From: Eledone cirrhosa
Lineage: Eukaryota
DNA length: 64,000 bases
Direction of reading: 5' to 3'
NCBI GenBank assembly: GCA_964016885.1
Contig: OZ024746.1
Span: 57,102,001 to 57,166,000 of the forward strand
This document shows, in pieces, positions 3,657-63,661 of this stretch. Under the pieces are notes generated by a model that was not told where the DNA came from, ran no database searches, and saw nothing but the letters and a program-made list of their open reading frames with translations. Position 1 is the first letter of the stretch; every line of letters starts with the position of its first letter. The position numbers and the translations under genes were made by a program.

Positions 3657-3844
3657 AACGAAGGGAAAGTGGTAAGGAACCAGGTGGACCATAACGCACC
3701 AAAGTACTCAATACTTAGGGTAGTAGAGTGGGTAATAGGAACAAGTAAGACCCGACGGCTGAGCTCAAGCCGTTTCGACGGCTAATTCTGGAATTAGCCG
3801 TCGAAACGGCTTGAGCTCAGCCGTCGGGGTCTTACTTGTTCCTA
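3657..3844. mobile_element. Miniature family A foldback (3' end only)
   Basis: Long arm with tail (minus, 3657-3790) and short arm (plus, to GTTCCTA), symmetric about CTAATTCTGGAATTAG, in (TA)n. Confidence 0.9.
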
Positions 3845-4699
3845 TATATATATATATATATATATATATATATATATATATATATATATATATATATACC
3901 TATATACATATATATATATATATGCATTGTGACATTCCAAAAATTATAAGTCACTCCCTGAAAATGTTCAAGTCATTCGTAGGCAAGACAAATTGATAGA
4001 TTGAAATTTAATTAAATGTCCAAGAAACACACGGACACACACACATACACACAAAGATGCAAACACACACACACATAGATTGGCTCACGTACAAACACAC
4101 ACATGCATATATGTATATGTCTATAAATGTATAAATGGATGTACGTATACTGATGTTGGTAAATTGATATTCATTTAAATCCAACTGTGAGTGTCGTATG
4201 TGCCTTCACCTCTGCCTTAGGTATAAACAAGAGAATTGAATGGAAATTAATTGGTTGTCTATGAATAGACAGCCAGGAAATGCTAATAATATAGCACTTA
4301 AAATTTAACATTACATATAGTCACTGCCACATCTCCAAAGGGGATAGCAGCAGAAAGATTATCATACGAATGTGGGGAAGGGAAGTATAAATATATATAT
4401 GCCACTACAAGAATTGATGATTCAAGTACCTTAGCGGTATGTCGCCTATCCAATCTCTTATATGTTGTATCTGATGGAAACGTACTGAAGAAACCATTGT
4501 ACCTCCTTTGGAATATGTATAATAAAATATTTAATTTGGTTATGATATTTCTCATATAATATTATTCAAAATATTAATAAATGTATATATATAAATATAT
4601 ATATATATATATATATATATATATATATATATATATATATATATATATATATATATATATATATATATATATATATTTATATACATATATATATAATAT

Positions 4700-5070
4700 T
4701 CTAGGAGAAGGAAAACTCTGATATAACACCTGCAACCCTGATGGTATCCAATGATGTTGACTGTTCTTCTTTTTGGTAAATATCATCTTGGTTAAGAGAG
4801 TGGGACTGGCTTTGTGCAGTGTCTTTGCTCACTATAAAAGCTTCACGACACAGGCATTGCTTTATATCTGGAGATCTCTCTGCACTTGTCGTCACATGGT
4901 ACAATGGGCCCAGCACTATGTGTCAATAATTGTCACAAGTGTAGTGTTTGTACAAAAGTTTTCAAGTCGCTGGCTGGACTCAAAAGTCACCCTCGTTCAG
5001 CGCATCGGTAGGCGTTCTCCTACATGGAAATAAAGTAGTGGCCGTACTCGAAAACGAGTTGGCAGCCAAC
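4700..5070. repeat. Unclassified dispersed repeat; second copy inverted at 43981-44215
   Basis: 4836-5069 is the reverse complement of 43982-44215 with high identity and a shared terminus GGCTGCCAACTCGTTTT. Confidence 0.8.
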
Positions 5071-5514
5071 ATATATGCATATATATGTATATATATAAAT
5101 ATATATCTATGTGGCTGTATATTTTTATTTTCATGTGAATATGTACATTTGTATATATATATATATATATATATATATATATATATATATATATATATAT
5201 ATATATATATATATATATATATATATATATATTGATATGTATATATTGATATGTCAGTGTATCATATAGAGATAGATAAGTATATGGACATATGCAATAT
5301 AACATATAATGATGAATATGCTTAGAGTCATACAGGTAATGTTATCATGTTTCTCTTGCAAATCACACTTAATCAGCCGCATAAATACGAAGTTATACAC
5401 GCATGAATATATATATATATATATATATATACACACAAATGTACATATATCGCATATATTTACATATAAATAAAAATATGTACACACACACACATATATA
5501 TATATATATGTATA

Positions 5515-5787
5515 AATTAGGATTGGTGCTCTGAAATAGCGACGTATGCATGAATGTATGTATAATATATTTGGTGATATTCTGTATGTTTAATTAAAAA
5601 CATTTTAAAGTAGTGACTATGTCACTTTCTTCTTTTTTCAGCAAAGTAAGGGAGCTCTGCCTTTTCTGAAAAAAAGGACCTAGTGACATAGTCACTACTT
5701 TAAAATAATAGTGCAAGGTCTTCAAAATGTTTTTTAATTAAACATACAGGGTATCACCAACTATACTATACTATACATACATTCATA
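5515..5787. repeat. Non-coding foldback, family F
   Basis: Inverted arms (TTTTAAAGTAGTGACTATGTCACT / AGTGACATAGTCACTACTTTAAAA); shares tail and core with 30649-30935. Confidence 0.75.
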
Positions 5788-60448: not shown

Positions 60449-60791
60449 TTAATCTGTTATTTTAATAAATATTTGCTCTACGGTTCTCATATATTTGATA
60501 TATATTTATGCTTATCGAGCCCTCTTTGGATTTTAGTCTTCAAATTTATTATTATTACTATTATTATTATTATTATTATTACTATATATATATATATATA
60601 TATATATATATATATATATATATATATATTGTTATACTTTGGGAGGGTCATATTGCCAATAAGAGACACACGCACCAGACGCTTTCACTTCAATTTATTA
60701 TATATTTATAAATTTATAAATTTACAAATCTACAAACTTATAAATTTCTGGTTGATTGGTTGGTTCCACAACCAGATAGTTGTTTATATAT

Positions 60792-60836
60792 AGTCATAGT
60801 CCTTTCGTCACACACTCTGTGACCTCTTCAGTGACT
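60792..60836 (-). ncRNA. Minimal hammerhead, family B, inverted-arm copy
   Basis: Reverse complement of 62048-62092. Confidence 0.8.
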
Positions 60837-62047
60837 GGGGATTCATTTCTTTGTTTCTGTGCCTTTCCTTTCTTCTATCCTACGCCATTTTGTTTCTGTG
60901 TGTGTGTTGTGTGCTCAGTTTGCGCATGCGCCACATCCGGGTGTATGTGTGTGTTTTTGTGTTCATTTATCTATTTGTTTATTTATTTATTTATTTATTT
61001 ATTGTTGGTTGGTTGGTTGTTCTATGTGTGTGTGTGTTTTCATTTTTTCTTGTGTGTTTTCATTTTGTCTTTAATTGTAAGTTGTTTGTTCTATGTGTGT
61101 GTGTGTTTTCATTTTGTCCTGTGTGTGTTTTCATTTTGTCCTTAATTGTAAGTTGTGATGTTGCTGTTCCACTCATATTTTCTATTTAATTGTGGTTGTA
61201 ATTCTTTTATGCTTACTGACTCTGTAATTTGCCTAAACATTGCATCTTTTCTGTGTGTGGATTCTATTTTTATTTCTATGTTCTCTAATCTACCCCTGTG
61301 TTCTATCTTAGCATGTTGGTAGAGCACAGATGATTCTTTATTATCTTGAAGGTCTCGCCAGTGTTCATTTATTCGTTCCCCTATACTACGAGCTGTCTCA
61401 CCTATGTACACTATATTTTTGTTTCTACATTGTCCTTCAGTACATCTTATGCTATACACTACATTTCTAGTTTTACAGTTAATATGGGGGCTTATTTTAC
61501 AGGTTATACGTTTCTTATCTATACATGAGGGTCTTTGGAACGGGTATGTCTTGCTAATAAGTGTTTTTACGGAGGTACCTGGTCTTTCTACTATCTTAAT
61601 ATTGAGTTATTTTTTTTTTTAGAGAACATAGAAATAAAAATAGAATCCACACACAGAAAAGATGCAATTTTTAGGCAAATTTAGAGGCAGTAAGCATAAA
61701 AGAATTACAACCAAAATTAAATAGAAAATATGAGTGGAACAGCAACATCACAACTTACAATTAAGGACGAAATGAAAACACACACACACATAGAACAAAC
61801 AACTTACAATTAAAGACAACATGAAAACACACAGGACAAAATGAAAACACACACACACATAGAACAAACAACCAACCAACAATAAATAAATAAATAAATA
61901 AATAAACAAATAGATAAATGAACACAAAAACACACACATACACCCGGATGTGGCGCATGCGCAAACTGAGCACACAACACACACACAGAAACAAAATGGC
62001 GTAGGATAGAAGAAAGGAAAGGCACAGAAACAAAGAAAGGAATCCCC

Positions 62048-62092
62048 AGTCACTGAAGAGGTCACAGAGTGTGTGACGAAAGGACTATGACT
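62048..62092 (+). ncRNA. Minimal type I hammerhead (family B)
   Basis: AGUCA-CUGAAGA-G-GUCACA..UGUGAC-GAAA-G(GA)C-UA^UGACU; predicted cleavage after 62087. Confidence 0.8.
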
Positions 62093-63661
62093 ATATATAA
62101 ACAACTATCTGGTTGTGGAACCAACCAACCAACCAGAAATTTATAAGTTTGTAGATTTGTAAATTTATAAATTTATAAATATATAATAAATTGAAGTGAA
62201 AGCAACTGGTGCGTATGTTTCTTATTGGCAATATGACCCTCCCAAAGTATAACAATATCGGTTTCAACACACGATTTCAGATAAAGAATCTTGCTAAACA
62301 AATTCAGAAACGATATATATATATATATATATATATATATATATATATATATATATATATATATATATATATATATATATATATATATATATATACATAT
62401 ACACATATATGTTTTCATTCATATGGTATTTATATTGGTGAGCAATTGTCTTATGTAAGATATATGTTACTCCTTAGATGTTGAAGACATTGAGATTTCT
62501 TATTGACCGCTATTTCTAGCGGCAATTTGGACTGGTCACATTATTTAGCTTTAAAATGATCTCTGCATGCGTGTAATATTATTTTATTCTTACACTATAT
62601 TTTTTTTTACACTTTACAGAAACCCTCTGGGGAAAACATCTTCTAGCAGAATGGACTGTCTCAACCTATTGGGATGATCAATACTCTACTGGATCTTGGA
62701 AACTGCATTAACGGAATTTAGCGAAGCCTTGTACTCTCGGTTGTATCACGCCATGAAACCTGGATAAGCACCGGCCAAATGAGTCTTCTGGTTTAAGACA
62801 GATTTTAGACTTTAGACTTGAAAATGTGAAGTTCAGTGTAGATATTAAAATATTCTTTATTAACAAAGCTGTAATACATATATCAATGACGATCGTTGCT
62901 ACGTAATTGTTCAATCATACATCAAGTCACGTGATATCATGCGACATCATCTTATATTATAAAGATACGTTTTCAACGTTTTCAAGGCAATCCATTCTAA
63001 AGACAAGTTCATTCCTAACAAGTCCGTTCCCTTGTCTTTCGTCTGGATTGCCTAGGAAACATAACATATGCCATAGTTCTTTTTTTTACCACTGTAACAT
63101 GGTTTAAGCTGCAGCAAAGAAGCGCATTTATTTTCGATGAAAGTAGAAGTGAGATGAGTGCCAATCCATGGGTAATCCTTTCAAACAGGATAATCTAGTA
63201 TTAAATTATAATTGGTTTGGTCTTTAACCAATGATTATTATAGGTTCTTACCCGCTTTAGATTAAAAAAAAAAAAATCAACCGAGACAACCTAGAAAAAT
63301 GGCGTCCCACGTGCTGGCCTCCCCACAGAGTGGTGGACAGAATGGAGAAGGCGTTTCCCCGGAGGATGGTAAGGGAGGATATGACTTTTACCATTCCAAG
63401 AGCATATTTTATTAAGGGATTGAGATTATCTCACCCACATTCGGATTATTTCGCCAGTTTCTTTTTATATTTGGTTAATTTGTTCATGATAGATATATTA
63501 TCCTCTGTGTGGATTACAATACTTTTTTTTATATGCGTTCTTTGAGTATAACATGCAGTTAATTGCCTAAATGCCTCCCGGTTTGTGTCTATAGTAACAT
63601 CTCAGATTATGATTGTTTTATTCTTCTCTGAGGCCCTTTCCTCCTATTCCGTTGTTTGTGC

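Follow-up and report, generated by a model that had tools for sequence, protein, structure and literature searches.

Paired short and long ends in the inverted insertions of Penelope-like elements of Eledone cirrhosa

Why would a retroelement come to rest as two head-to-head copies with different outer ends? The question is posed by a 64,000-nucleotide (nt) stretch of Eledone cirrhosa DNA, hereafter the window (contig OZ024746.1 of assembly GCA_964016885.1; C6:57102001-57166000 of the 3.0-Gb assembly), which is rich in (TA)n runs and inverted repeats. Among the latter are foldbacks of Penelope-like elements (PLEs), whose two arms point their 3′ ends outward into (TA)n; one arm stops at a short end, S, and the other continues through a tail to a long end, L, from which positions within each element are counted. 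A sequence-only reading of the window had proposed that this asymmetry is an integration rule. As shown below, the foldbacks are real and genome-wide, the pairs named in that reading are present where it placed them and with the geometry it described, head-to-head pairs nearly always combine one S with one L, and both sites are internal to the RNA and end in bases that match the target. Three families, A, B and C, carry the argument, and their copies in the window are listed here.

6793..12010: family A foldback; left arm ending at S, its 5′ side extending about 870 nt beyond that of the right arm, which ends at L; offset 79-80.
17753..21069: family A foldback; left S arm of 856 nt; right arm reaching L and carrying the 3′ portion of the reverse transcriptase/endonuclease open reading frame (RT/EN ORF, 18587-19774); offset 79-80.
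3658..3842: family A minimal hairpin; L left, S right; arm starts at about -138/-134; offset 79-80.
23107..23296: family A minimal hairpin; L left, S right; offset 79-80.
11825..11918 (+): family A predicted type I hammerhead, from the minimum free energy (MFE) fold and variant counts; the core is UUGAGAA, the stem II loop is long and cutting is predicted after 11913.
11844..11883 (+): family A hot spot of 5′ ends (-150..-130), a putative RNA 5′ end; TATA-like TATTTAAA at 11844-11851, a candidate promoter element.
11931..11965 (+): family A short site; TAT at 11931-11933, then an RCTC..GAGY-MCT hairpin.
12011..12013 (+): family A long site TAT; tandem copies elsewhere continue into a second hairpin and the ORF.
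53751..53972 (+): family A solo L arm, diverged.
60630..62312: family B foldback; S left, L right; hammerhead core motif at 62053-62081, ORF start at 62215, S site at 62251-62258; offset 58-60.
52384..52640: family B small foldback; L left, S right; offset 58-60.
32004..36052 (-): family B near full-length solo arm to L, with an N-rich insert, frameshifted.
58092..60582: family C foldback; S left, L right; ORF 58218-59463; offset 114 owing to an ATT expansion.
59547..60300 (+): family C intron in the 3′ untranslated region, GT-AG, 754 nt.
44448..44704: family C small foldback; S left, L right; offset 89-90.

The pairing rule and its two sites

The 3′ ends of all three families are bimodal. Randomly placed stretches of the genome, 1.38 Mb in all, served as a random-DNA sample, and in its first 800 kb 18 of 42 family A ends fell at L and 15 at S; 8 of 33 family B ends lay within 2 nt of L and 12 at S, and the corresponding figures for family C were 6 and 7 of 17. 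The short end is fixed, as had been claimed, and not a scatter of random end points. Across the full sample 136 arms were found, among them 31 adjacent head-to-head pairs that resolved into 26 S+L, no SS, no LL and five with a damaged end. Under stricter end calls, S+L accounted for 23 of 23 pairs in random DNA alone (p=2e-7 against 50:50), and for 97 of 98, with one LL and no SS, once the hit loci were added; these are best-matching copies anchored on L ends, so that SS as the anchor pair cannot be sampled among them. An inverted arm was present at 56 of the 69 resolved best-matching loci (A 23/27, B 15/16, C 18/26), a figure that leaves aside 12 loci unresolved at the far ends of long arms and six internal array units. 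A de novo set of 140 pairs, 28 of them scored as "symmetric" (including clusters 5, 6 and 13, whose tails start in an internal TA run, and cluster 4, a tandem array), includes chance or duplicate pairings and was not used as a count.

Foldbacks of this kind might be suspected of being assembly or long-read artefacts, or else palindromes made at the DNA level by MITE-like mobilisation (MITE, miniature inverted-repeat transposable element) or breakage-fusion. The hairpins are indeed small and abundant, and alternating arrays described below may be later duplications. Raw reads speak otherwise: across 17400-21200 of the window, independent Illumina reads from two other samples stop at S and pass into (TA)n (2291 in X19, 1978 in X20), and contigs of run X1, whose library type is not on record, contain many distinct inverted joints between 17792-17814 and 20928-20942. 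Near 18602 no spanning read or contig was found among the rows listed, and the loose end there corresponds to the intact element; these read checks covered the family A locus. The reads already largely refute an artefactual or DNA-level origin; fixed asymmetric ends, variable centres, diverged arms and spliced arms speak against it as well, and we regard it as highly improbable. A DNA transposon with terminal inverted repeats, or a MITE, was likewise rejected as a candidate, since symmetric terminal repeats around a fixed core are replaced here by asymmetric ends, variable centres and spliced copies.

Where do the two ends lie on the RNA? In all three families, tandem copies do not stop at L but continue into the 5′ region and the ORF (TTCGTTAT/CTAGC in A, CGAAATAT/CGTAAG in B and TACTAT/TTGGC in C, the slash marking the site), and in family B both S and L fall within the first 35 codons. 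Because of this read-through, S and L are both internal to the RNA. The short and long sites are TTCCTAT/TAC and TTCGTTAT/CTA in family A, ACAATAT/CGG and GAAATAT/CGT in B, and TAAATAT/TTG and TTACTAT/TTG in C, where the short site is taken from the window copy, the read-through copy being substituted at that position. All six end in TAT, with three to four bases of alternating TA that match the target, a coincidence with a joint chance of about 1e-5 from local composition. In A and C units, moreover, an RCTC..GAGY(A/C)CT hairpin occurs solely right after S and right after L; family B is without any. The earlier proposal, in which a processed or terminated RNA truly finishes at L so that S alone is internal, gains something from the sharpness of L, which is considerable. 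It is nevertheless contradicted by the ORF read-through, by a TAT like that of S, by the same hairpin as after S and, in family A, by a predicted ribozyme cut at -100, upstream of both sites; we regard it as very unlikely, and the placing of one priming event "at the RNA end" as unsupported.

A target duplication is difficult to discern within a (TA)n microsatellite. With fixed registration, a scan recovered a 14-nt duplication in three and an 11-nt duplication in one of 14 informative pairs (p=0.0004). When the register could move within element-derived bases, 18 informative pairs gave six duplications of 14 nt (four in A, two in B) and one of 15 nt (C); with shuffled flanks, duplications of 13-15 nt averaged 0.78, and seven were reached in 0 of 1000 shuffles. 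In the four family A cases of 14 nt, the duplicated stretch begins precisely at the TAT position of one end and finishes at that of the other. At two loci (L002 and L029) the junction bases match the target and not the element TAT, as expected if those bases are the primer. By its geometry, a duplication flanked by cDNA on both sides would imply 14-nt 3′ overhangs. TA slippage may have erased other duplications; the lengths of flanking TA runs showed no clear edge at 14.

Double-ended priming and its rivals

How, then, could one insertion begin at two sites? In the reading we favour, with a probability of roughly 0.55, one protein-RNA complex copies sense RNA onto both ends of a staggered cut, that is, by twin target-primed reverse transcription. 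The GIY-YIG endonuclease, probably a dimer, would nick the two strands 14 nt apart, a spacing suggested by the duplication, to leave two 3′ overhangs; each 3′ end (..ATA-3′) would pair with a UAU of the RNA at the positions seen, one at S and one at L, and both sites would be used on a single RNA molecule. S and L are 60-90 nt apart in the region of the pseudo-long terminal repeat (pLTR) and ORF start, with the same hairpin after each in the Hydra-like families. Each cDNA would extend outward from its target end to a stall, to the RNA 5′ end (about -140 in A) or to a template jump; the two would then be joined head to head, with gaps filled, through the few-base overlaps or filler that the junctions display, the junction gap lying within -5..+4 in 65 of 97 pairs. 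One RNA is preferred because two free RNAs should also yield SS and LL pairs. The core of the sequence-only proposal, that the opposite strands of a self-complementary target are each primed once, is supported. That PLE integration in general is double-ended, with one RNA, two docking sites, a dimeric enzyme, a 14-nt stagger, priming by 3-4 nt of pairing and cDNAs fused head to head, is a tentative extension that falls a little short of even odds; if true, it would account at once for inversion of the copy, the tail on a single side and the preference for (TA)n in at least two clades.

The published explanation (PMC3846280 Discussion; PMC8557442 section 6; here and below, statements on published work refer to the portions of each source available to us) is a single priming followed by fold-back self-priming of the cDNA or of antisense RNA, the second end being fixed as the intermediate is resolved. 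In its favour, near-perfect palindromes are common at the junctions, the arms reach 5′ to within 50 nt of each other in 56 of 97 pairs, and the family A arms of one pair are alike. A fold-back copy is, however, confined to sequence present in the first arm. Yet in 23 pairs it is the S arm that extends beyond its partner on the 5′ side (in 18 it is the L arm); at C1:377.7 Mb the start of the S arm is -2278 and that of the adjacent unit -1358. Nor can a tail come from an S arm made first. In multi-unit insertions the main arm ends at L at C1:91.47 Mb and C1:377.7 Mb and at S at C1:437.2 Mb and C1:168.37 Mb, and fold-back of one cDNA cannot yield both. Equal arm lengths in family A are accounted for by a 5′ hot spot common to the arms: 75 of 106 family A 5′ ends (21 of 28 in random DNA) fall at -150..-130, about 28 nt past the TATA-like TATTTAAA, and we infer that the hot spot, at about -140, is the RNA 5′ end. 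The template-jump units of three loci (L173, L175 and L184) restart at this same point; there, short direct units start at about -140, pass L by 91-817 nt and restart at -140, as apparent template jumps. Family B has a weaker cluster of 5′ ends at -345..-310 (8 of 48), and beside it the pLTR at 61944-62001 of the window bears ETS-, NRF1- and YY1-like motifs, which we take to be a possible internal promoter.

Splicing bears on the template directly. The 754-nt family C intron is precisely absent from 4 of the 28 arms that cross its acceptor, including both arms of L078; spliced family C arms occur at L078, L080 and L082, and most copies keep the intron. PLEs are known for intron retention, and for that reason the spliced copies are informative: they show that a spliced sense RNA served as template at some step, with the caveat that the three spliced loci could stem from spliced donors. 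The spliced arms argue against the antisense template of PMC3846280, and with the arm lengths they make fold-back self-priming improbable.

The chief rival, unlikely but the strongest of the alternatives, is twin priming with a separate RNA for each arm, as a rule both from one donor; an asymmetric dimer would hold the two and impose one S and one L start. This rival would dispense with two RTs on one template, and template jumps are evident in L173, L175 and L184; in the last of these, three sites distinguish the terminal S unit from the L arm, which the intervening unit matches, and L175 is similar. Such a scheme requires extra asymmetry to produce the 97:1:0 of S+L, LL and SS, and the splice state agrees where both arms cross the acceptor (spliced/spliced at L078, a small n). 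Arms of one pair have subfamily variants in common, with a within-pair mismatch of 3.2% versus 7.2% shuffled in family A (0 of 1000 shuffles as good) and 2.9% versus 4.0% in family B (1 of 1000); a shared donor or age is thereby shown, not a single molecule. In two multi-unit insertions the terminal unit is the one that the inverted arm resembles, C1:377.7 Mb (one private site) and C1:168.37 Mb (three of four shared sites).

Copying of one RNA onto both target ends nonetheless has a number of observations to contend with, which are gathered here. Two RTs on one RNA would need strand displacement; in family C the arms of a pair are not detectably more alike than shuffled ones (1000 of 1000 shuffles as good); and the inverted arm is not like the terminal unit at C1:91.47 Mb, L175 and L184. 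One LL pair, L057, breaks the pairing rule. In the movable-register scan, one of the 18 pairs had a duplication of 17 nt, one of 10 nt and nine none, and every 14-15-nt case comes from hit loci or arrays. Finally, 48 TA-flanked solo arms in the 1.38 Mb of random DNA, eight of which were reassigned as distant pairs or tandem add-ons, leave about 40 against 34 pairs (A about 20 pairs versus 13 solos, B 9 versus 12, C 5 versus 15), and the median identity to the reference is 92.3 for paired arms versus 89.9 for solos (p=0.07). Because solos are many and paired arms only marginally younger, single-ended insertion may be common. The earlier statement that inversion is the norm accordingly holds for family A and for the best-matching copies, and fails in random DNA, where pairs make up just under half; nor did the count there confirm that most insertions are pairs. 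One direct tandem adjacency occurred in the sample.

Clade assignment and comparison with known systems

What kind of PLEs are these? By their motifs, families A and C appear to be Hydra-like and family B Neptune-like, with the Nematis clade as a possible alternative placement for B. Young tandem insertions outside the window supply the intact ORFs, 717 aa in a unit of about 3.53 kb for family A, and 1236 aa, with an asparagine-rich insert, in a unit of about 4.07 kb for family B; both carry YRDD/YVDD motifs in a single ORF that combines the RT with a C-terminal GIY-YIG endonuclease. The asparagine-rich insert is in frame at 33855-35447 (-) of the window, and similar inserts occur in Adineta Penelopes (PMC3846280). 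The overall layout of A, B and C is that of PLEs, with tandem or inverted pLTRs, 5′ truncation and a tail. Pfam recognised GIY-YIG on two family B fragments only, and six of eight window proteins were without a Pfam match; Atlas neighbours of the family A protein bear HTH_animal, RVT_1 and GIY-YIG.

Measured against the clade definitions of PMC8557442 (section 11 for Hydra), A and C share with the Hydra clade the CxCX5C linker (CNCPDRSIC in A, CNCRNRVDC in C), an endonuclease with CxxC and CxH (CNLC and CKH in A, CDLC and CKH in C) and no CCHH, and the (TA)n target. Family A further has DKT, and RWR for RWK; family C has RWM upstream. They depart from the clade in a unit of 3.5 kb, compared with generally <3 kb, and in the non-canonical hammerhead cores UUGAGAA (A) and CAGAAGA (C). 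Family B has the linker CIDKKCITC (CX4CxxC), CTEGQC within GIY-YIG and H residues downstream, in line with the CX2-5CxxC plus CCHH of Neptune. The MFE fold of family A is a type I hammerhead with a U3/A8-type core; family B has canonical core motifs with only a partial MFE fold, family C the variant core, and family E, taken up below, a core motif. No hammerhead was among the best 150 of 225 Rfam matches, those listed being hairpin- and miRNA-type chance matches below gathering.

Much of this architecture has precedent, more than the sequence-only reading allowed. Endonuclease-bearing (EN+) PLE insertions are described with an inverted truncated copy, a 30-40-bp tail that is often one-sided, (TA)n targeting and undiscernible duplications (PMC8557442), and head-to-head is reported as the commonest arrangement, with 8-10-bp duplications in Adineta and antisense self-priming as the proposed cause (PMC3846280). 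The inverted copy, the often one-sided tail, the partial tandems and the (TA)n bias all recur here. The differences are that tails here span 34-178 nt rather than 30-40, that either arm may bear the tail, that strict S+L pairing was counted, that a 14-nt duplication was recovered, and that the spliced, sense template stands in place of the antisense self-priming of 2013. Closer still is PAc, the Poseidon element of Anolis, which in vitro nicks and extends both strands, uses two internal starts that bound the tail and is predicted to be a dimer (PMC11167929); those starts, like the ones here, lie at the pLTR/ORF start, downstream of a hammerhead (a predicted one in the present families), and are described in that source as lacking homology to the cut DNA. 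Already published, therefore, are TA targeting, the inverted copy with its one-sided tail, and the use of two internal starts in vitro; what is new is the exact 14-nt duplication, the finding that either arm may be the longer, and one pair with both arms spliced, which extend the known inverted-plus-tail layout.

Twin priming is familiar from LINE-1, in which the second target strand primes a second cDNA to give a 5′ inversion. The second LINE-1 start is variable and the two arms copy different parts of the RNA; here, by contrast, neither start varies and a single region is copied into both arms. In a literature search made mostly without subscription papers, the strict S+L rule, TAT pairing and 14-nt duplication were not found, and the accessible portions of PMC13282606, PMC7229834 and bioRxiv 10.64898/2026.07.22.740005 do not describe this geometry. 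PMC8557442 (section 15) states the formation of PLE tandem and inverted structures and of the tail as open, and PMC11167929 leaves the later insertion steps unvalidated. The present reading offers predictions for that existing in vitro system, namely that the cut is staggered by 14 nt, that the starts depend on UAU, that each target end uses one site and that the template is sense, with the young intact 717-aa Hydra-like copies as a natural substrate. PLEs are the sister group of telomerase.

Other families and side features

The sequence-only reading counted at least seven families. Asymmetric ends are seen as it described; the link to PLE coding sequence holds for A, B and C only. Families E-H have bimodal ends in several cases, and a same-strand PLE ORF lies upstream of 0-7 ends per family, position alone being compared. 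The remaining asymmetric insertions of the window, from family E and five further small families, are the following.

46088..48152: foldback of family E with a 97-nt tail and, at 47967-47998, a hammerhead core motif; no PLE ORF linked.
21094..21443: asymmetric hairpin; tail 66 nt; putative PLE origin.
21468..22861: asymmetric foldback with a 178-nt tail; the ends of its family are bimodal, 3 and 4 of 7.
30650..30934: asymmetric hairpin; tail 34-43 nt, starting in an internal TA run; related copy at 5510-5784; offset 34-38 across the two.
30272..30382: part of the tail of a further asymmetric family, with an offset of 127.
31027..31264: asymmetric hairpin; tail 46 nt.

Further PLE families are represented at 39907-42676, 12485-13329 and 36235-37044, namely a sibling resembling B, which has a long end of its own, and two Hydra-like ORF fragments. 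At 29099-30062 a family A long arm abuts a family B arm with no TA run separating them, perhaps through deletion or heterologous joining. Tail-to-tail palindromes around a TA run, at 23005-23145, 30206-30321 and 38822-38901, arise where adjacent insertions occupy a common microsatellite; Rfam scores them, below gathering, as miRNA-like hairpins. The pairing of short and long ends also suggests that many small hairpin repeats of such genomes could be misfiled as MITEs or miRNA-like loci.

Several arrays elsewhere in the genome deserve mention. In those at C1:91.47 Mb and C1:437.2 Mb, full-length family A units alternate private variants (ABAB), which may reflect rolling-circle copying of a dimer, later duplication or an assembly effect; as proof of rolling-circle copying the pattern was rejected, since the fifth unit at C1:91.47 Mb breaks the alternation. 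At the arm junction of a young array, a 55-nt segment from inside the family A ORF is repeated in tandem about 65 times (C1:91489170-91492740), apparently a minisatellite born at the centre of a foldback. Lastly, C1:330028800-330031450 contains tandem units of about 310 nt in (TA)n, with a hammerhead core motif, that are retrozyme-like.

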